Assembly (NCBI RefSeq): GCF_030013205.1
Contig: NZ_CP122648.1
Direction: 5' to 3' (one strand)
Origin: Escherichia coli
GTDB taxonomy: Bacteria > Pseudomonadota > Gammaproteobacteria > Enterobacterales > Enterobacteriaceae
DNA length: 64,000 nucleotides
In this document: piece after piece, positions 9,768 to 18,761 of the stretch
Layout of the letters: each line of letters begins with the position of its first letter
Numbering within the stretch: position 1 is the first letter of the stretch
Translations under genes and position numbers: made by a program
Notes under the pieces: generated by a model
Databases searched by the model: none
Told to the model about the DNA's origin: nothing
Seen by the model: the letters and a program-made list of their open reading frames with translations, nothing else

Positions 9768-10709
9768 ATGGCTACTATTGCGCAATCAAAGAAACAAAAA
9801 AAACTTAAAATTGGTTTTTACACCAGCAGTTCTGGGACTATCCGCAGCCATTCAGTTGCTAAGCAAGCAATTGAAAATCTGTATAATACTTGCGTAACCG
9901 TTACGAATAATCATTTTGATACCATCTATAGAAATAAAAAGTTAAAAATAGCTTTTATAAATAAAGATACAAAAGCTAAATATTTCTTCGGCTACATGTC
10001 ATGCTCACGAGAAGAGTATCTCCTTCCTTATATTGGTGATGAACACTGGAATGAGCACAACATACCACTAGATGATAAAAAATACATAGTCGAAAGAACC
10101 TATTTTTTATATTATTACGATAGTGATATTTTAATATTAACTCAAAATCATCTTGGGCCGAAAGAATCGGATTTAGCTTATCTGCTTTACAGCCAGAGTG
10201 GTAATCCTGGAAATAACTTTTCATTCCAAGCCATCTGGAAAAAAGAGAGCGTCAAAGAGCTACTTGAAACAGGAAGTACTTTGAGAAGTTGTGATATTGT
10301 CCTGGCTGCTCCCAGGAACTTTGATGCAACAAATTACCAGCTAAATAGTTCATTTTCTAAGGAACTGGTAAATATGATGGTAGGGCTGGGTGGAACACGT
10401 CTCAAGTTAAATCTAAGGGGACGTGCATCAGGGAGAGTAAAAGTCAAAGGTTATTTATCAGATCTCGTTAAGGATGGTATTAAAGAACTCCTTGAAAAAA
10501 TGCCGGGAATTGTAAAAAAAGCGGCAGTAACACAGCCCAAAAATACCGTTGAACAAAGTCTTCTTGATCAGGTACTCATTTCAGAAAAAAACATATATAC
10601 CGTTAATGGTTATGGCACTGATAGTGATGTTCTGCAAGCCATGATTTCTGCTAAAATTGATAACAATGAATACCTTAAGCAATACGATATCAGCAAAAAG
10701 AAGGTATAG
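9768..10709 (+). CDS. RexA-like protein (candidate exclusion/abortive-infection component), uncharacterised
   Basis: 313 aa, soluble, AT-rich codons; first gene of a tightly linked pair; weak recalled similarity to lambda RexA (GFY near N-terminus, GP..SDL segment). Confidence 0.45.
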   Translation: MATIAQSKKQKKLKIGFYTSSSGTIRSHSVAKQAIENLYNTCVTVTNNHFDTIYRNKKLKIAFINKDTKAKYFFGYMSCSREEYLLPYIGDEHWNEHNIPLDDKKYIVERTYFLYYYDSDILILTQNHLGPKESDLAYLLYSQSGNPGNNFSFQAIWKKESVKELLETGSTLRSCDIVLAAPRNFDATNYQLNSSFSKELVNMMVGLGGTRLKLNLRGRASGRVKVKGYLSDLVKDGIKELLEKMPGIVKKAAVTQPKNTVEQSLLDQVLISEKNIYTVNGYGTDSDVLQAMISAKIDNNEYLKQYDISKKKV

Positions 10710-10712
10710 GAT

Positions 10713-11156
10713 ATGTTATTGAAATACTTAAGAAACCTGATTGTAAGTGTTTTTTGCACCTTGTTCCTACTGAGGTATATCCCTCAGATGGGGCATGCTG
10801 ACATACTTACAGCCTCCGGGGTTATTTCAACTGTATCCGGTATTTTATTTGGTTTTATTTTAGCCACAATATCAATTTTTAGTGCTGCTAGCGAAAACTC
10901 AAATGGAATAATAAAAGCATTAAAAAACAACAACATACTTCAAGTTATTATTGTAAATCTATTAACCGCAGGTGCATCTTTAATTACGGCATGCGTTATT
11001 GCTTTGATAGCAATGTTTGCCAATGAAAAGACATTGTTACATGGAGAAAAAATAGAATTTATTTTAATTATCGAATCTTTATCTCTTCTTATCATTTCAG
11101 TAATAACTTTTGCCTTTACATGGAGAAAAGTAAACTGGATACTCCCCCACATTTAA
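10713..11156 (+). CDS. RexB-like small inner-membrane protein with four predicted TM helices
   Basis: 147 aa, four hydrophobic helices, LRYIP motif after helix 1 similar to lambda RexB (FRHYIP, as recalled); starts 3 bp after the upstream gene. Confidence 0.5.
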   Translation: MLLKYLRNLIVSVFCTLFLLRYIPQMGHADILTASGVISTVSGILFGFILATISIFSAASENSNGIIKALKNNNILQVIIVNLLTAGASLITACVIALIAMFANEKTLLHGEKIEFILIIESLSLLIISVITFAFTWRKVNWILPHI

Positions 11157-11179
11157 AAAGGGCAGAAATGCCCTTTTTT

Positions 11180-11557
11180 CTACTCCATTTCAAGTTTAAC
11201 ATCCAGCATTGAAAGGCATCCATCAATAAACCCTTCAGCCATCTGTATCTCTATACGTATCAATTTCTCATCTTTTTTGCGAGCTCTTGCAAGCTTTCTT
11301 TTCGAGATGCCATACAGGTAATGGGCCACAATCAAAGAATGCTCGTACGGTTTTCGCTTTTTAAGAAGAGCAAGACAACCTTCAATAATTAATGCATCAC
11401 TATCTGAACAAGCCTGACGTGTTTTGCTTGTATAGGGAAGAAGCCCTTTAAACCCAGCAGCTATAGGAGAATAGTCTACTCCTGAACTATCACTCGCCGC
11501 CCATGCTCCCCAACGATCCAGAACCATTTGAATATCACGCATCAACTTTCTCCACAA
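11180..11557 (-). CDS. Late-gene antiterminator Q (QuuD/QuuQ-type)
   Basis: 125 aa; MRDIQMVLDRWGAWAA... matches the N-terminus of K-12 prophage Quu proteins as recalled. Confidence 0.75.
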   Translation of the reverse strand: MWRKLMRDIQMVLDRWGAWAASDSSGVDYSPIAAGFKGLLPYTSKTRQACSDSDALIIEGCLALLKKRKPYEHSLIVAHYLYGISKRKLARARKKDEKLIRIEIQMAEGFIDGCLSMLDVKLEME

Positions 11558-11559
11558 AA

Positions 11560-12555
11560 TCAGGCCAGCACGCCAGTTGCCAGCGCACGATCGATAAAAC
11601 GAAATATCAGCTCCAGCTGGGAGCCATACCTCTCTTCAAATGTCACGGTATCCGCATGCAGCTCGTCGTGATGCTTTCTGCACAAAGGCAACACAAAAAG
11701 GTCATGCGCTTTTGTTCCCATTCCACCCTGACCGTAACCTATCAGGTGGTGGGGATCATCAGCGGGCTTTCCACAACATGCACACGGCTGTGTCTTAACC
11801 CAGCGCGTGTACTTTTCATTAACCCAGCGGCGACGTTTTGGGCGTAACATAAAAGACTCCGGCGACTCCGGATCCACTTTCAGCGCCAGCACCTTTTTCG
11901 CCTTATCCTGGATGATGCTGGTGGCAGGAACCGAAGGCACAAGGTCACTTTCCCGGGTGACAGACGGCACAACAGGCTTCGGTAATCTCAGTGCCTTACG
12001 GGCTGCACTTTCCGGTAAGGCATCCGCCAGGTCATTACGAATCAGCCACCAGCACAGTTCCGGCATTGTCACAACGTGACTGTCATCAAAACCGAGATCC
12101 CGACGCACAACAGACAACACCCAGCGGGCACAGTTATCCGTTGCCATTGATTCCAGCCGTTCCGTGAACTGATCGCGCAGCTGGTTATCGCAGTGCCAGC
12201 ACAGACGGATTGCACCCGGAGCGTGTCGCATTGTGGTCATGTTCTCGCTGTGCCAGTCGGAATGAGGCCACTGGCAGCCTTTTTTACGAAGTAACCAGCT
12301 TTCAAGACATTCCACGCCACCAGCACGACGGATCACTGCCTCATTGCGGAACACGGCCCGAACGGCAGGATCATCCGCCAGCGGTTGTGACGCCGCGGGA
12401 ACGGCACCACTGGCGAAAGATGAATAATGCTCCGGCTCAGGCTCCAGCAGGACACGCCCCTGCATAAACAGGGGCATCAGCTCTGAACCGGGCCTGAACA
12501 ATACGATCCCCATACGCGGGGCAATTTCAGGGGTCAGTAGTGCTCTCACGGTCAC
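11560..12555 (-). CDS. DUF968-family lambdoid phage protein with C-terminal HNH-like Cys/His motif
   Basis: 331 aa; C-terminal CACCGKP...HHLIGYGQGG...CRKHHDELH. Confidence 0.5.
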   Translation of the reverse strand: MTVRALLTPEIAPRMGIVLFRPGSELMPLFMQGRVLLEPEPEHYSSFASGAVPAASQPLADDPAVRAVFRNEAVIRRAGGVECLESWLLRKKGCQWPHSDWHSENMTTMRHAPGAIRLCWHCDNQLRDQFTERLESMATDNCARWVLSVVRRDLGFDDSHVVTMPELCWWLIRNDLADALPESAARKALRLPKPVVPSVTRESDLVPSVPATSIIQDKAKKVLALKVDPESPESFMLRPKRRRWVNEKYTRWVKTQPCACCGKPADDPHHLIGYGQGGMGTKAHDLFVLPLCRKHHDELHADTVTFEERYGSQLELIFRFIDRALATGVLA

Positions 12556-12556
12556 C

Positions 12557-13366
12557 TCAATGAACGGTATCGAGCAGCTTTAACAGCTCAGGGAATCGGG
12601 ATTCGAAGAAATGCGGCTGCGTCTCGCGCGGATTTGCGGGACTGGTGATGTTCTTGCCGAACATGCAGCCTTTCGCTGTCAGCGACCAGAATTTTTTGAT
12701 GTTGTTAATCGCGGTACGGCTGTATCGTTCGCGTTGTTCAACGATCCCCAGCTTCGCCATCTGGTGATATGCCTGATTAGCCGTCAGGCGGATACCATAC
12801 TGTTTCAGCAGTGCACTCAGCGACAGCGTAGGGCGACTTGAGCCATCAGGCGCGTCAGCAGGAGCATCAATGGCATAGCGCGGTGCCAGATTCGGTAAGC
12901 CAACAGCCTCCTGGAGTTTCTGACAGGCACCAAGCACTGAAGAGTTAGACAGGTTTAACTCCCTGCGCATAAAGTCCAGCAGAATCACTCCAGCCTGCAT
13001 CTTGTCAGCAGCCTGCCCGGATAATTTTTCCGGTGCGCTGGTTACCATATCGAAAGTACGGATCACCTTCAGATGGAATGACGGGCTGATCCACATTGCA
13101 TAGGCATACACCAGTTCTTTGCAGACATACGTCCCCTGGTTATTTCCGCCATTAATGACGCTAACTGGTTGATTTTGTTCCAGAGGCGGAATTCCACCCT
13201 CGGTGAAAAGTTGTTCAATCAATTCACAGGTTTGCTTATTGGAGAGCCAGTATTTCGGGCGGTTTTTTTGTTCTCCCCCGGCTGCCCTGTGCAGATCGTT
13301 CAGGCTGTAACGCCCATAAGCATCACGACGAACTTCAATACCATCAATAACCATCAGATTATTCAT
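12557..13366 (-). CDS. KilA-N domain protein (antirepressor/Roi-like)
   Basis: 269 aa; N-terminal VIDGIEVRRDAYGRYSLNDLHRAAGG...RPKYWL has the KilA-N signature. Confidence 0.6.
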   Translation of the reverse strand: MNNLMVIDGIEVRRDAYGRYSLNDLHRAAGGEQKNRPKYWLSNKQTCELIEQLFTEGGIPPLEQNQPVSVINGGNNQGTYVCKELVYAYAMWISPSFHLKVIRTFDMVTSAPEKLSGQAADKMQAGVILLDFMRRELNLSNSSVLGACQKLQEAVGLPNLAPRYAIDAPADAPDGSSRPTLSLSALLKQYGIRLTANQAYHQMAKLGIVEQRERYSRTAINNIKKFWSLTAKGCMFGKNITSPANPRETQPHFFESRFPELLKLLDTVH

Positions 13367-13385
13367 ACTTCGTTTCTCCTCTTAA

Positions 13386-13589
13386 TCAGGCGGCTGCACC
13401 CGCCGGTTTCTCATACTTACTGATAGTGATCTCGACCTTCCCTTTCGGGATAACCGGTCCCCACTCCACCAGCATTCTTTTCACCTGTCTGTCGTCTTCC
13501 CACACACCCGCGTGGGTCAGGGCGTCAAACAGCGCCTTGTTATAGTTGTCCAGATCGCGGATCCGGTTATTTGCCGTTAAACTGTTCAT
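13386..13589 (-). pseudogene. rusA: Holliday-junction resolvase RusA, C-terminal fragment (about 60 of 120 aa)
   Basis: RDLDNYNKALFDALTHAGVWEDDRQV...KGKVEITI matches the RusA C-terminal half; the N-terminal half is missing. Confidence 0.65.
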
Positions 13590-14137
13590 GCGTTAGTTTC
13601 TCCACAGACACAAAACGCCACGACGCCCGGAGCTGCACACTCGCGGGCGTCACTCTTTTCTGGAGCGCAGAAAATTTTGTAGACCAGTGCCGCATGCTCC
13701 TGGAGCTTCGAAATTGACAGATACAATTCATCATTAATTGCTGTCTGCTCGTGTGGCTCCACTACCCCATCTTCGATTGCCGAACGAATCTGCTTTGAGT
13801 AACTCCCGATCTGTTCGATGACTTCCAGCAGGCGCTGGTTTATATCTGCGTTCTCTACTTCCTCAATTTCAGGAAGCGATACAAACACCCCACCAGCAGA
13901 CTGTGCGACAGCATCCGCAATGTAGTGAGTGCCAGCAGCACGCTGTAAAATCATTGCCCATCCCAGCGGGAAAATCTGATCGCCATCTGCACGAAGGCGG
14001 TTGAATAAAGCGTTCTCTGTAACATCCAGCCACTCAGCAGCTTCAGCGTAACCCCCCGGCAACGCCGCGATAGTTTTTCTGACAGCTTTCACGTACCACT
14101 CAGGCTGTTTTTCCACTTTCCAGTGATGATTACCCAC
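13586..14137 (-). CDS. Early regulatory protein immediately downstream of cro (YdaT/CII-like position); C-terminus possibly altered by a deletion junction
   Basis: 183-aa ORF overlapping the cro stop; family assignment is by position and weak recollection only. Confidence 0.35.
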   Translation of the reverse strand: MGNHHWKVEKQPEWYVKAVRKTIAALPGGYAEAAEWLDVTENALFNRLRADGDQIFPLGWAMILQRAAGTHYIADAVAQSAGGVFVSLPEIEEVENADINQRLLEVIEQIGSYSKQIRSAIEDGVVEPHEQTAINDELYLSISKLQEHAALVYKIFCAPEKSDARECAAPGVVAFCVCGETNA

Positions 14138-14390
14138 GGCTTACCTCCTGTTCCTGTGGTTTAAACCCATTCTGGTTTTGGCTAGATTGAAAACGTGCCG
14201 GATAAAGAATCTGCATTTCGCTGATTTCACCCTTAAAAAAATTGGCCAGACGTTCTGCAAGATCGATAGATGGAATTTGTTCCAGTCTTTCAATACGACT
14301 CAGCGTCGCTGGATTGACCTGAACGCCAGCAGCAACATGCTGCAAAGTAAATCCGTGCGCCTTACGCACATTCCGTAATGGTGATTGCAT
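14130..14390 (-). CDS. cro: Cro-like HTH (XRE-family) repressor
   Basis: 86 aa with HTH (GFTLQHVAAGVQVNPATLSRIE), divergent from the cI-like gene across a 97-bp operator region. Confidence 0.75.
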   Translation of the reverse strand: MQSPLRNVRKAHGFTLQHVAAGVQVNPATLSRIERLEQIPSIDLAERLANFFKGEISEMQILYPARFQSSQNQNGFKPQEQEVSRG

Positions 14391-14487
14391 ATGACCTCCA
14401 CATATTGCGTGATGAGCATATTATTTCACGCAAATATTTTGCGCAAGTTGATTTGCTTAACGCGCAATAAAGAAATGTAATAAACGC
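14391..14487. promoter_or_regulatory. Right operator/promoter region (oR, pR, pRM) with repeated TTGC-N7-GCAA-type sites
   Basis: Sites TTGCGTGATGAGCAT (14405-14419) and TTGCTTAACGCGCAA (14453-14467), plus palindrome CGCAAATATTTTGCG between them. Confidence 0.5.
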
Positions 14488-15180
14488 ATGAACATAGGAA
14501 ACCGAGTCAGACAACTTCGCCAGGCGAAGAACATGAAAATCGCCGATCTCGCTGAAGCAATAGGAGTGGATGCGGCGAATATCTCACGCCTGGAAACAGG
14601 TAAGCAGAAACAATTCACTGAACAAGCCCTGAGTAATATTGCCAAGAGCTTAGGTGTTGATATTGCTGATCTCTTTACCTCAGACTTCAAAAGTAATACT
14701 GTATGTAAAAACAGTATTAGTGAGGATGTTGCGCAGGTGAAGGATGTATTCCGTATTGAAATGCTGGATGTCAGTGCCAGTGCGGGAAATGGCCTTATCC
14801 AGGGCGGTGATGTCATTGATGTGATTCATGCCATTGAATACAGAACTGATAATGCTGTATCGATGTTTGGTGGACGGCCAGCCAATCACATTAAAGTTAT
14901 CAACGTTCGTGGGGACAGTATGTGTCCAACCATTGAGCCAGGAGATCTCATCTTCGTTGATGTCAGTATCAATCAGTTTGATGGAGATGGTATCTATGTA
15001 TTTGGTTTTGATGATAAAATTTATGTCAAACGACTGCAAATGATACCTGACAAACTACTGGTGATTTCTGATAACCAGATTTACCGTGAATGGGGAATTA
15101 CCAGCGAAAATGAACACCGGTTTATGGTCTTTGGAAAGGTCTTAATCAGCCAGTCACAAACCCTTAAGCGACACAATTAA
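14488..15180 (+). CDS. cI: CI-like prophage repressor (HTH-XRE N-domain and S24 LexA-like peptidase C-domain)
   Basis: 230 aa; N-terminal HTH (MKIADLAEAIGVDAANISRLETGK), C-terminal ...GDSMCPTIEPGDLIFVD...YVKRL with Ser/Lys dyad pattern. Confidence 0.85.
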   Translation: MNIGNRVRQLRQAKNMKIADLAEAIGVDAANISRLETGKQKQFTEQALSNIAKSLGVDIADLFTSDFKSNTVCKNSISEDVAQVKDVFRIEMLDVSASAGNGLIQGGDVIDVIHAIEYRTDNAVSMFGGRPANHIKVINVRGDSMCPTIEPGDLIFVDVSINQFDGDGIYVFGFDDKIYVKRLQMIPDKLLVISDNQIYREWGITSENEHRFMVFGKVLISQSQTLKRHN

Positions 15181-15200
15181 CCCTTACCTCCTCATCAATT

Positions 15201-15225
15201 AGCCACCCAAAGGTGGCTTTTCATC
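15201..15225 (+). terminator. Rho-independent terminator after cI
   Basis: AGCCACC-CAAA-GGTGGCT hairpin followed by TTTTCAT. Confidence 0.55.
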
Positions 15226-15229
15226 ACCC

Positions 15230-15280
15230 TTTAAATTGCATATCTCGCAACAAAAACACTTGCATAATGCGCAACTTCAT
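15230..15280 (+). promoter_or_regulatory. Putative left operator/promoter (oL/pL)
   Basis: Two sites with the same TTGC-N7-GCAA pattern as oR: TTGCATATCTCGCAA (15236-15250) and TTGCATAATGCGCAA (15260-15274). Confidence 0.45.
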
Positions 15281-15882
15281 TTTATCTTTCTTTCCAGACA
15301 AACAAACAAGGTACTAACAAAATTTGGTTGTAACACGGCGTATGGCACATGCGTCGTTAGCGGTCTGGGGACGTTAAAGGGGACAATCCACTCCTTGCTC
15401 GGGCAAACAAACCAGGTAGCCGGAATGTGCAAGTCAATGATGATGCTGATAAGACGCCTAACCAGCGTGGCGATTCGGTTTGACGCCTGGGAAGAGACCA
15501 GGGTGCAACGATGAGGGCATTTATGGAGCCGCGACAAAGTGTGGTGCCGTAACTGGCTAAGTGCTCTCAGCGTTGTGGTAATCCGCGAAATGGCGCGGCG
15601 GTAAGTATGGCGGGGTTACTCTTTCCCCGTTGAGGACACCGGATTGTCAGGTTGACCATACGCCTGAGTGACAACCCCACCACAACAGCCACTGCTTTGG
15701 CGGTACCAGTTTGTACCCTTGCTTCCGGCTGGTACCGCTCTTTTTACAAAACAGAGAAGAGCATCACCGGACGACGAGCTCATAACCCAATCCATCCGGG
15801 CGGCTGCCACCGCAGGTGTTCTTCTCCGTTTTGTGGAGAAACCAACCGACCTTGCAGGGTCGATATGATGAGGAGCAGCAAA

Positions 15883-16245
15883 ATGGCTAGCGAACGCAGT
15901 ACTGATGTGCAGGCATTTATTGGGGAGCTGGACGGCGGCGTATTTGAAACCAAAATCGGCGCAGTTCTCAGTGAAGTCGCTTCCGGTGTGATGAACACGA
16001 AAACCAAAGGTAAGGTCTCGCTCAACCTGGAAATCGAACCGTTTGATGAGAATCGTGTGAAAATCAAACACAAACTCTCGTATGTTCGCCCGACTAACCG
16101 CGGGAAAATTTCCGAAGAAGACACCACCGAAACGCCGATGTATGTCAATCGCGGTGGTCGCCTGACTATTCTGCAGGAAGACCAGGGACAATTACTGACT
16201 CTTGCTGGTGAACCTGACGGAAAACTCCGCGCAGCAGGTCATTAA
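15883..16245 (+). CDS. YfdP-like prophage protein (CPS-53 family), 120 aa
   Basis: GAGGAG ribosome-binding site 7 nt upstream of ATG at 15883; size and position match yfdP ahead of the yfdQ/yfdR homologues. Confidence 0.5.
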   Translation: MASERSTDVQAFIGELDGGVFETKIGAVLSEVASGVMNTKTKGKVSLNLEIEPFDENRVKIKHKLSYVRPTNRGKISEEDTTETPMYVNRGGRLTILQEDQGQLLTLAGEPDGKLRAAGH

Positions 16246-16310
16246 TATCGTTCTTAATTAACTGATTATTTATCTCATCACTGAATATCTTTATATAGTG
16301 AGGACTTATT

Positions 16311-17135
16311 ATGTCTCAGAACTTAGACGCAACCGCAATTAATCAAATCCATGCCCTTATTTCTGCTCAGGGTGTTAATGAAATTATCAGTAAGATTGGT
16401 GCCGATGCTGTGGCATTGCCTGAGAATTTCCGCATTCATGATCTGGAAAAATTTAATTTAAATCGCTTCCGTTTCCGTGGTGCGCTTTCCACTGCCAGCA
16501 TCGATGACTTTACCCGTTATTCTAAAGATCTTGCAGATGAAGGCACCCGCTGCTTTATCGATGCTGATAATATGCGTGCCGTCAGTGTGCTTAACCTGGG
16601 TACTATTGATGAACCAGGTCACGCAGATAACACCGCCACTCTCAAACTGAAAAAGACAGCACCGTTCTCTGCTCTGTTGTCTGTTAATGGCGAGCGTAAC
16701 TCCCAGAAATCACTGGCAGAATGGATTGAAGACTGGGCCGACTACCTTGTGGGCTTTGATGCTAATGGTGACACCATTCAGGCAACCAAAGCGGCTGCGG
16801 CAGTCCGTAAAATCACAATTGAAGCAAACCAGACCGCTGATTTTGAAGACAATGACTTCAGCGGCAAACGCTCCCTGATGGAGTCTGTCGAAGCGAAAAC
16901 CAAAGACATTATGCCAGTGGCATTTGAATTTAAATGCGTTCCGTTTGAAGGCCTGAAAGAACGTCCGTTTAAATTACGCCTCAGCATTATCACTGGCGAT
17001 CGTCCTGTACTGGTTCTGCGCATTATTCAGCTGGAAGCGATGCAGGAAGAAATGGCTAACGAATTTCGTGATCTGCTTGTTGAGAAATTCAAAGACAGCA
17101 AAGTAGAAACCTTTATTGGTACTTTCACCGCCTGA
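16311..17135 (+). CDS. YfdQ-like protein (DUF2303), 274 aa
   Basis: Length and gene order identical to CPS-53 yfdQ; no catalytic motif recognised. Confidence 0.5.
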
Positions 17136-17263
17136 TTTCATTACTGCAAATGCCCCTGCGGGGGCATTTATGGAAACGTAATTAACTCAATAATCACCGG
17201 ATGGTGAGAGCTTCCTTTTAGCAGAATTCAGCGCGGTGCAGCGCATATAAAGTGGAGAACTAA

Positions 17264-17800
17264 ATGTCATTTATTAAAACTTTTTCCGGGAAGCATTTTT
17301 ATTATGACAAGATAAATAAAGACGACATCGTGATTAACGATATCGCAGTTTCCCTTTCAAATATCTGTCGCTTTGCAGGACATCTTTCACACTTCTACAG
17401 TGTCGCCCAGCATGCGGTGCTTTGCAGCCAGCTGGTGCCGCAGGAATTTGCTTTTGAAGCGTTAATGCATGATGCAACAGAAGCATATTGCCAGGACATC
17501 CCAGCGCCACTGAAACGACTTCTTCCTGACTATAAACGGATGGAAGAAAAAATAGACGCCGTAATCCGTGAGAAATACGGGTTACCCCCGGTTATGAGCA
17601 CGCCTGTGAAATATCCCGATCTCATCATGCTCGCAACCGAACGCCGTGATCTCGGGCTTGATGATGGCTCTTTCTGGCCTGTACTGGAAGGTATCCCGGC
17701 AACAGAGATGTTCAAAGTTATTCCACAGTCGCCAGGCCATGCCTACGGGATGTTTATGGAACGCTTTAACGAGTTATCGGAGTTACGCAAATGCGCATGA
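17264..17800 (+). CDS. YfdR-like HD-domain 5'-deoxynucleotidase, 178 aa
   Basis: HD-type metal-binding residues (...HLSHFYSVAQHAVL...MHDATEAY...); size equals K-12 YfdR. Confidence 0.6.
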   Translation: MSFIKTFSGKHFYYDKINKDDIVINDIAVSLSNICRFAGHLSHFYSVAQHAVLCSQLVPQEFAFEALMHDATEAYCQDIPAPLKRLLPDYKRMEEKIDAVIREKYGLPPVMSTPVKYPDLIMLATERRDLGLDDGSFWPVLEGIPATEMFKVIPQSPGHAYGMFMERFNELSELRKCA

Positions 17801-17834
17801 GTCTTTCAACTGCACAACCATTGGAGGGGTAGCA

Positions 17835-18029
17835 ATGAACAACTTAATGACAACTAAACAGGTCGCCGACTTCTGTGGTGTTTCAATATCAACAGTGCTT
17901 CGCTGGAACAGCATAAACCATAGAACAGGTAAGAAATATAGACCAGACTTTCCTGATCCTGATATAAAATCCTGTCCCAATAAATGGGCATCACACAAGA
18001 TTTATAGGTTTGCGGGTATTATCGAATAA
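17835..18029 (+). CDS. AlpA/Xis-family excisionase-like DNA-binding protein (TorI-like)
   Basis: 64 aa from ATG at 17835 (GGAGGGG ribosome-binding site upstream); MTTKQVADFCGVSISTVLRW is an AlpA-type HTH. Confidence 0.6.
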   Translation: MNNLMTTKQVADFCGVSISTVLRWNSINHRTGKKYRPDFPDPDIKSCPNKWASHKIYRFAGIIE

Positions 18030-18761
18030 CATTTATTTGTTTCGATGTTAGCTGACACATCTATGGCACAGAGCAAAACCGAATATGATTGTCCACTCTG
18101 TGCTAGTAGAAAACATAGATATCAACTATCCGTACCAATCTGTGAGTATAGAATAAATTAATCTGCTCGCAACTAATAGCCTCTAACAGCCAATACAGTG
18201 CCACCGATGATACAAAAAACAATACTCCAAAAAGCGTCTGGTATTGGATTGTCATTACTAGCTTCCGAGGTGAGATATGCATTAAGCCAGGTGCGCTGGA
18301 AAAGTTATGTTTCCCTAATGGAATTGCCCATGACTCAACATATTTTTTCTCTGTTGCTAGCGAATAGACCTAAAATGATAAGCACCATTAACATCAACAG
18401 CGCCCCCTTGAGCTCTTCTTTTCGGTGAAAAGCCCATCATCAACGGCGCATTGCCTAACCCGAATTCTAGCCACCTTAGCCAGTATTTACCCCCTAGATA
18501 CCAAATGCTTACCCCTCTATTTGCTCTGATAATACTTTATTGCATAATCCCTCACTACATTAGACACTGCGTCAATCCTGCCTTCTATAGCTTGTTTTAA
18601 CGCTTTCGGCACATTCCTCTGAACCAGCCCAAGATATGGCTGTTAAATTTTTACTTACATTCAAAAAAACTTTAACTTTTGCAATCAGATCATATGATGT
18701 TGTTAATGGTAATATTCTGAATCTAAAATGACTTAAGAGTTCGTAGGTTAGAGGGACATGT

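Follow-up and report, generated by a model that had tools for sequence, protein, structure and literature searches.

In phages 434 and P22 the repressor and Cro recognise shared operators, which read ACAA-N6-TTGT in 434 and are 18 bp long in P22, and in phage lambda the -10 box of pRM is followed by 6 nt to the ATG of cI, a geometry that recurs in the pRM predicted here. The nearest described relatives of the present locus are the phages mEp460, PhiR63_1, PhiR47_1, 1720a-02, phiSTEC1575-Stx2k, Stx2a_1447/WGPS2 and SfII, which carry the same cII-cro-OR-cI-terminator-OL module with cI proteins 97-99% identical. In phages of the mEp460/SfII type this module is part of complete genomes that also include replication genes and structural genes, whereas the window, the whole 64-kb stretch of Escherichia coli DNA that was analysed, holds it in a remnant. 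Records of these phages annotate cI and Cro, but not the operators. The searchable literature, from which subscription journals are largely missing, contains no operator description for ST64B, SfII, SfV, mEp460 or the 8-bp word TTGCGCAA, and no reports of binding, footprints or transcription starts for the mEp460/SfII-type repressor. An operator consensus for this immunity type is apparently unpublished.

Taken as a whole, the locus is very probably a lambdoid prophage's immunity switch that belongs to the mEp460/SfII immunity type, a reading that best explains its gene content, layout and candidate operators (Table 1). As the sequence-only reading had described, divergent cro-like and cI-like genes flank a 97-bp gap (14391-14487), a layout common to all relatives. 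The hallmarks of a lambdoid switch occur together: divergent genes with a short gap, a repressor that joins a helix-turn-helix (HTH) domain to an S24 domain with Ala-Gly and Ser/Lys residues, several dyads in the gap over pR and pRM (promoters predicted by eye), and a second operator cluster, OL, beyond the cI unit. The repressor and operators are near-identical to those of the mEp460/SfII homoimmune group; the lambda-type operator geometry of regular 20-24 bp spacing and three OL sites was not found.

The annotated counterparts of the cro-like gene in SfII, mEp460 and PhiR63_1 are named Cro. The cI-like protein matches the Pfam families Peptidase_S24 (E 6.5e-19) and HTH_3/HTH_26, and its Ala-Gly cleavage site, the Ser of GDSM and the Lys of VKRL (A99-G100, S143 and K180 in the numbering of the first sequence of alignment A1) are invariant in seven diverged homologues. 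A PDB search returned remote matches alone, with a best E of about 3e-4, among them UmuD', ClgR and a 434-derived design (dh434), as well as SinR. The cII-like gene matches Pfam PF06892 (E 8e-15) and PHROG 101, 'CII-like transcriptional activator' (E 1e-72), and is named ymfL in the annotation of an identical genome. Every relative has a cI terminator at the equivalent position, consisting of a differing GC-rich hairpin and a T-run, and the consensus fold shows compensatory changes at three of five pairs. An Rfam search of positions 13000-17000 gave zero family matches.

Table 1. Features of the immunity region, with positions in the window; operators are candidate sites and promoters are predictions
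Feature	Position	Strand	Description
cII-like activator gene	13586..14137	-	third gene of the rightward operon; Phage_CP76 / YmfL family
cro-like gene	14130..14390	-	86 aa; Pfam HTH_3, E 6e-10
cro ribosome-binding site	14395-14399	-	GGAGG
OR site A	14405..14419		TTGCGTGATGAGCAT; covers about -8 to +6 of predicted pR
Predicted pR	14418..14446	-	-35 TTGCGC (14446 to 14441), 17-nt spacer, -10 TAATAT (14423 to 14418); start near 14411; assigned by eye
OR middle site	14439..14453		TTGCGCAAGTTGATT; consensus left half, weak right half
OR site C	14453..14467		TTGCTTAACGCGCAA; exact motif; spans -35 to -21 of predicted pRM
Predicted pRM	14453..14481	+	-35 TTGCTT (14453-58), 17-nt spacer, -10 TGTAAT (14476-81); 6 nt to ATG
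cI-like repressor gene	14488-15180	+	230 aa; N-terminal HTH and C-terminal S24 LexA-type autopeptidase domain
Intrinsic terminator	15201-15221	+	AGCCACC-CAAA-GGTGGCT then TTT; between cI stop codon and downstream sites; read from sequence
OL2	15236..15250		TTGCATATCTCGCAA; promoter-distal left operator; exact motif
OL1	15260..15274		TTGCATAATGCGCAA; overlaps -35 and spacer of predicted pL (-35 to -21)
Predicted pL	15260..15288	+	-35 TTGCAT (15260-65), 17-nt spacer, -10 TATCTT (15283-88)

The region is 100% identical to porcine enterotoxigenic E. coli (ETEC) chromosomes such as ETEC4067, in which prfC and yjjG flank the prophage. Immediately after cII comes a RusA fragment, at the place where mEp460 and SfII have Rha, O-like and replication genes; tail-tip and other prophage genes are pseudogenes in the annotation of an identical genome, and no head or terminase genes appear in the prophage annotation. 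These features bear out the earlier view that the prophage can neither replicate nor build particles. The gene for Q, two holin genes and an endolysin gene are still present downstream. The repressor and switch look intact, also as had been proposed: cI shares 99.1% identity with its PhiR63_1 counterpart, 98.7% with that of mEp460 and 97.0% with that of SfII, its catalytic residues are invariant, and the 97-bp gap of the window matches the allele most often seen in 80 near-identical viral contigs.

At the nucleotide level, bases 14100-15320 are 96-98% identical to PhiR63_1, mEp460, PhiR47_1, phiSTEC1575-Stx2k, 1720a-02 and Stx2a_1447/WGPS2, and 91% identical to SfII. The intergenic region differs from that of mEp460 at one base (14393), which lies outside the sites, and SfII retains all half-site cores; all five window sites occur at matching positions in mEp460/SfII-type phages. 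The module is present at at least 90% identity in 1,039 of 5,426 complete E. coli genomes (about 19%), and a scan of IMG/VR gave 414 relatives. A first scan of viral contigs yielded solely copies 99-100% identical, and the repeat used an alignment led by a distant homologue, which provided 28 distinct class I gaps and 27 distinct class II gaps. The classes are defined by the cI recognition helix, D[AG][AG]N[IV]SR[LV]ETGKQ in class I (DAANISRLETGKQ in the window) and SDVGNLSRLERG in class II, as in Cronobacter phage ENT47670. Diverged relatives with an equal gap length include ST64B, 118970_sal3, Eeyore, phiNP and Klebsiella phages, whose cI proteins are 68-84% identical to that of the window.

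Comparison of these sequences gives an operator consensus of TTGCG-N5-CGCAA, in keeping with the suggestion that the sites would yield one. Exact TTGC-N7-GCAA words occur in the region at 14453-14467, 15236-15250 and 15260-15274. The sequence-only reading had placed copies of the form in the gap at 14405 and 14453, of which the second is exact and the first reads GCAT instead of GCAA at its right end, matching seven of the eight specified bases. This ending of site A may be explained by its last two bases (AT), which would form the end of the pR -10 box. Across the 28 class I gaps the TTGCG and GCAT of site A are invariant around a variable centre, and the class II equivalent is ATGCG-N5-CGCAT. 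Site C likewise keeps TTGC and GCAA in class I with a variable centre, and reads TTGCG-N5-CGCAT in class II. The other invariant class I operator columns are the middle-site block TTGCGCAAG and TTTGC; outside the operators, two pR -10 bases, TGTAAT, one base of the cro ribosome-binding site and the ATG do not vary, whereas the site centres and the stretch matching 14420-14438 do. Among the 80 near-identical contigs nearly all polymorphisms fall outside the half-site cores, and positions 14439-14456 have none.

The middle site includes the pR -35, and its centre falls at -42 relative to the predicted start of cI, where lambda has OR2. The middle site shares one base pair with site C, the two centres being 14 bp apart, and site A lies 34 bp away. 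The corresponding class II sequence is [AT]TGCGCAA-NNN-CGCTT; its centre bases vary, its CGC is conserved, and by sequence it is a clear, recognisable 15-bp site. The 8-bp word named above stands at 14439-14446, and the palindrome CGCAA-N5-TTGCG at 14429-14443. That palindrome is the one noted earlier as a related palindrome in the gap; it is present but not conserved, and the candidate for the third OR site is 14439-14453 instead. As a candidate for OR2 it was set aside in favour of 14439-14453, its left arm being unconserved (TACAG in ST64B, TAGTT in Eeyore and CGCTA in Klebsiella phages). Other arrangements in the gap were also discarded. The perfect 8-bp inverted repeat TTGCGTGA/TCACGCAA (14405-12 and 14426-33), considered as a hairpin or a long-spaced operator, has a right arm that is unconserved in relatives; a 32-nt pseudo-dyad of the whole gap is accounted for by sites A and C mirrored around its centre; and the resemblance of ACGCAAATATTTTGCG to a PurR box has the wrong spacing and an unconserved sequence. 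Beyond the proposed sites, the 97-bp gap contains no further conserved dyad.

Downstream of the cI terminator, the two further sites reported by the sequence-only reading are exact matches and lie 24 bp apart. Two sites in this position occur in 34 of 35 non-redundant class I relatives, at about +54 and +76 nt from the cI stop codon and 22-24 bp apart, and the remaining contig has the promoter-proximal OL site alone. In class II, OL consists of two exactly abutting sites (head-to-tail, 15 bp) about 135 nt past the cI stop codon.

The changes in the operators are matched by changes in the proteins. The class I cI helix DAANISRLETG is replaced in class II by DVGNLSRLERG, and ATGCG-N5-CGCAT stands at equivalent positions in the 27 class II gaps; the Cro helix, which is similar to that of cI, shifts alongside, from NPATLSRIERL or DPANLSRIERG in class I to DVGNLSRIERG in class II. 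No other sequence-level evidence for the operators, and for their being shared by cI and Cro, is as strong as this co-variation of protein and site. The search for the motif at matching positions of related prophages, which had been put forward as a check, thus found it conserved while centres and flanks diverge, and this conservation, together with the co-variation with both recognition helices, argues for the proposed OR/OL arrangement of a lambdoid immunity region.

In the predicted promoters pR, pRM and pL, the TTGC half-site supplies the TTG of the -35 hexamer. The predicted pR geometry recurs in relatives, as TTGCGC-17-TAACAT in class I and TTGCGC-17-TATTAT in class II. For pRM, the TGTAAT box is invariant in class I, and class II retains a TnTAAT-like box 6-7 nt 5' of the ATG. 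With only 6 nt between the predicted -10 box and the ATG, the cI mRNA is probably leaderless, and a Shine-Dalgarno sequence is absent upstream of this ATG. The predicted pL would read into a leader of about 600 nt and then yfdP, yfdQ and yfdR; TATCTT is found at an equal distance in SfII, Eeyore, phiNP and Klebsiella phages, and the site-to-box geometry of OL1 and pL equals that of site C and pRM. A consensus promoter scan called none of the predicted pR, pRM and pL, and called a plus-strand match at 14397-14424 instead. That match was rejected as a promoter, its -35 being unconserved and the minus-strand TAACAT giving a better -10 in relatives.

Counted over the whole window, the exact motif occurs six times against 2.8 expected, and six or more occurrences were reached in 3 of 100 shuffles, which is weak when taken alone; three of the six matches fall within the 890-bp region (binomial estimate about 5e-5). 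A symmetrised weight matrix was built solely from sites of diverged relatives, with the window left out, and in a variant also without SfII. The sites at 15260 and 15236 have the top two scores in the window, 20.8 and 18.9 bits against a shuffled maximum of 15.7, and 20.7 and 18.2 bits against 16.9 in the variant. Site C at 14453 scores 15.1-16.6, near the shuffled maximum, and site A at 14405 scores 13.2-14.6, inside the chance range by score alone; the support for site A as an operator comes from positional conservation and not from its matrix score. The middle site is absent from the 15 best matrix matches in the window. A similar word stands in a host promoter region at 36251.

The alternative that deserves most weight, although it is rather unlikely, is that A and C are the only repressor sites in OR, and that the invariant block 14439-14456 has been kept as the back-to-back -35 hexamers of pR and pRM. 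The pR -35 does lie inside the proposed middle site (14439-14453), at whose last base the pRM -35 starts before extending to 14458; the block is missing from the top weight-matrix matches, and its right half in class I (GTTGMTT) mismatches the operator consensus and shows no variation. However, 18 invariant bases exceed what two -35 hexamers need, fully abutting consensus sites occur in OL of class II, and the first base of the class II form of the block, with its CGCTT right half, tracks the A/T switch between the clades in most members; L140 has TCGCTT. A reading with three OR sites is accordingly preferred to one with two, with the middle site as a putative operator.

Far less probable is that the TTGC..GCAA words are merely -35-like hexamers with chance dyads, the repressor binding elsewhere or another regulator (Cro only, cII or a host factor) using the sites. 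The excess of exact motifs over the window, only about twofold, the similar word near the host promoter and the coincidence of left half-sites with predicted -35 hexamers would fit such an origin, but OL2 and site A have no -35 overlap, and the right halves (CGCAA) are equally invariant though they are not promoter elements. The T-to-A switch of the half-site, which accompanies both the cI and the Cro helices, and the lack of any other conserved dyad in the 97-bp gap also count against it. Another view, also improbable if less so, is that the switch is a silent relic, intact in sequence, with a cI that is no longer expressed or needed and sites conserved merely through recent acquisition. Replication and morphogenesis genes have been lost, and 96-98% identity to sequenced phages implies little time for decay. 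Yet no disabling change is seen, cI, Cro, the five sites and both -10 boxes being the commonest allele, and the Q, holin and endolysin genes downstream give a reason to keep repression; moreover, this possibility bears on present activity and not on the identity of the sites. The preferred reading remains that of an intact switch of the mEp460/SfII type with five candidate operators.

Under the preferred reading, dimers of the 230-aa cI-like repressor would recognise 15-bp dyad operators, and Cro, with an HTH paralogous to the N-terminal domain of cI, would most likely recognise the same sites and compete with cI. The three OR sites would act at different promoter elements, site A at the start of pR, and the middle site and site C at the -35 boxes of pR and pRM respectively, while OL1 beyond the cI terminator would cover the pL -35, with OL2 beside it. 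Since the TTGC half-site provides the TTG of all three -35 hexamers, occupancy of the sites would be expected to exclude RNA polymerase. In a lysogen, cI on site A, the middle site, OL1 and OL2 would silence pR and pL, shutting off cro, cII, KilA-N, DUF968 and Q from pR, and the leader, yfdP, yfdQ and yfdR from pL, whereas pRM would probably be stimulated from the middle site and limited from site C. RecA-stimulated self-cleavage at Ala-Gly, through the Ser and Lys, would lift repression and induce. Such a circuit is most likely a lambda-type bistable switch. In the remnant it would give no phage output, but immunity to homoimmune phages would remain, and KilA-N, Q and the lysis genes would be held silent; immunity and silencing together offer a plausible reason for retention of the switch.

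Some details sit less easily with this scheme. Site C is a good match to the consensus, yet it would repress cI's own promoter, which makes the proposed balance of activation and autorepression less certain. The 14-bp centre spacing between the middle site and site C is without lambda precedent, and it was counted against the best explanation. Because these two sites share a base pair and the OL sites of class II stand head-to-tail, abutting sites appear habitual in the family, and it is conceivable, if somewhat doubtful, that this repressor family uses abutting operators as a rule, in which case neighbouring dimers would lie on different helix faces. If so, the activating and autorepressing sites could exclude each other, or a tetramer could read a 29-bp composite site, and the logic of the switch would be unlike that of lambda's 23-24 bp cooperative pairs.

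The consensus and the five mapped sites provide an operator model for an immunity type found in about one-fifth of complete E. coli genomes, and the same type occurs in several Stx2-converting phages and Shigella serotype-converting phages. The consensus would predict which prophages are homoimmune, and the remnant could protect porcine ETEC from mEp460-type and some Stx2 phages. The two clades also form a clean natural example of co-variation between operator and recognition helix. The practical value is modest.

Among known systems outside the mEp460/SfII type, the clade of Cronobacter phage ENT47670 (class II) has a cI about 50% identical to that of the window and is alike in its three-site gap, leaderless-type cI start and Cro paralogue, but differs in its recognition helix, in its ATGCG-N5-CGCAT operators and in the abutting, more distant OL pair. 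The cI proteins of HK022 and ST104/BTP1 are about 42-43% identical to that of the window, and in e14 (YmfK) the genes follow the same order, including a YmfL-type cII. HK022, ST104 and e14 have other N-terminal DNA-binding domains and operators, with TGAAC-N5-GTTCA-type words in HK022 and TGTAC-type words in e14, and were rejected as operator models, their resemblance to the locus being confined to the C-terminal domain or the order of the genes. Like 434 and P22, the locus has an all-helical Cro/C1-type HTH (Pfam HTH_3) in both repressor and Cro, and the N-terminal domain gives a weak PDB match to the 434-derived design dh434 (E 6e-4); unlike in those phages, the operators follow a different sequence, and there is no close sequence relationship.

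As in lambda, cI and cro diverge, the repressor is a self-cleaving protein of the S24 type, the gap is of comparable size and holds three dyads, one of which is centred at -42 of pRM, and the predicted starts are about 77 bp apart; cI is of the leaderless type, OL comes after the cI unit and an OL pair is spaced by 22-24 bp. Unlike in lambda, the operators are 15 bp long rather than 17 bp (TATCACCGCCAGTGGTA in lambda), OL has two sites instead of three, and the OR spacings are 34 and 14 bp instead of steps of 23-24 bp; in addition, rexAB is absent, Cro is an HTH_3 protein paralogous to the N-terminal domain of cI, and OR and OL lie only about 0.8 kb apart. Collectively, this is an ordinary lambda-style switch, well resolved and intact inside a crippled E. 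coli prophage; it is not surprising, and conceptually it bears out the lambda paradigm and poses no challenge to it.

Between pL/OL and the yfdP gene lies a non-coding stretch of about 600 nt containing a homologue of sRNA-17, a published ArcA-modulated sRNA of E. coli K1 RS218 (PMC7719688), which was located by mapping the primers published for it onto the window. The paper's "promoter" fragment and the full-length primer could both be placed, whereas the primer for the other end had no match at up to 9 substitutions; the mapped primers put the RNA on the plus strand. A strong hairpin, GGCGGTACCAG...CTGGTACCGC, with TCTTTTT directly after it, closes the 3' end of the RNA, and the homologue may therefore simply be the terminated 3' portion of the pL leader. 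The region folds better than its shuffles (z -3.3), and an Rfam search of window 13000-17000 returned no family for it.

Coordinates of features in the window and in relative phage or contig sequences (L-numbers)
Feature	Sequence	Position	Strand
Non-coding pL leader	window	15290-15883	+
Non-coding pL leader, part with the sRNA-17 homologue	window	15552-15746	
sRNA-17 "promoter" fragment	window	15322-15571	
Full-length sRNA-17 primer	window	15713-15744	-
sRNA-17 as placed by primers	window	~15552-15744	+
Inverted repeat in cI	window	14694-14719	
Operator-like word	window	36251-36265	
453-aa ORF	window	36305-37666	
IS200C copy, between Q and lysis genes	window	7364-7822	
tRNA-Gly gene	window	8253-8327	-
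AraC-family regulator gene	window	within ~7364-10709 / 18762-19781	
DUF6731 and DUF4365 genes	window	within ~7364-10709 / 18762-19781	
Class II OL pair	L095-L123, L131, L137-L139	~135-165 nt past cI stop	
AACAGGCAGGACGCCCACGAAGTAGCCGCC element	L003 (ST64B)	~2590-2640	
AACAGGCAGGACGCCCACGAAGTAGCCGCC element	L005; L089		
AACAGGCAGGACGCCCACGAAGTAGCCGCC element	L094 (e14)	downstream of ymfK	

The gene contents of the remnant prophage (window ~7364-10709 and 18762-19781) were taken from the annotation of an identical genome, a porcine ETEC chromosome, and include the IS200C, tRNA-Gly, AraC-family, DUF6731 and DUF4365 entries in the table. Sister strains carry an additional IS3 and a Rha gene inside the stretch corresponding to window 9000-20000. 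These differences, together with the contents of the remnant, suggest that IS-mediated deletion shaped it.

The linker-coding part of cI harbors a perfect 9-bp inverted repeat (TAATACTGT / ACAGTATTA, 8-nt loop). Elsewhere in the window, the word TTGCGTAATGCACAA ranks third or fourth by the operator weight matrix, at 16.2-16.7 bits, a score close to the highest seen in shuffled sequence. The word sits in intergenic DNA of the host, approximately 40 nt upstream of the 453-aa ORF, within a longer dyad (CGTAAT..ATTACG), and is probably either the site of a host regulator or a chance occurrence.

Among the relatives, the two OL sites of the ENT47670 clade (class II) are arranged exactly head-to-tail, ATGCGCTTGACGCAT|ATGCGCTATACGCAT, and TTGACG within the invariant center of the first is likely the pL -35. 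A third clade of cI homologues (L124-L130 and L132-L133), with the helix WDVGNISRLERG, has a differently organized gap, whose site words include ATGCG..ACAT and TTATGTATAAAATACAAAT. Here a GGGGG ribosome-binding site precedes cI, which thus does not look leaderless.

A conserved element, AACAGGCAGGACGCCCACGAAGTAGCCGCC, is common to ST64B, Eeyore, phiNP and K-12 e14, directly past their pL-type promoters; the window lacks it and has an unrelated leader. This element could be a leader RNA element, and e14 carries it despite having a different repressor and different operators.
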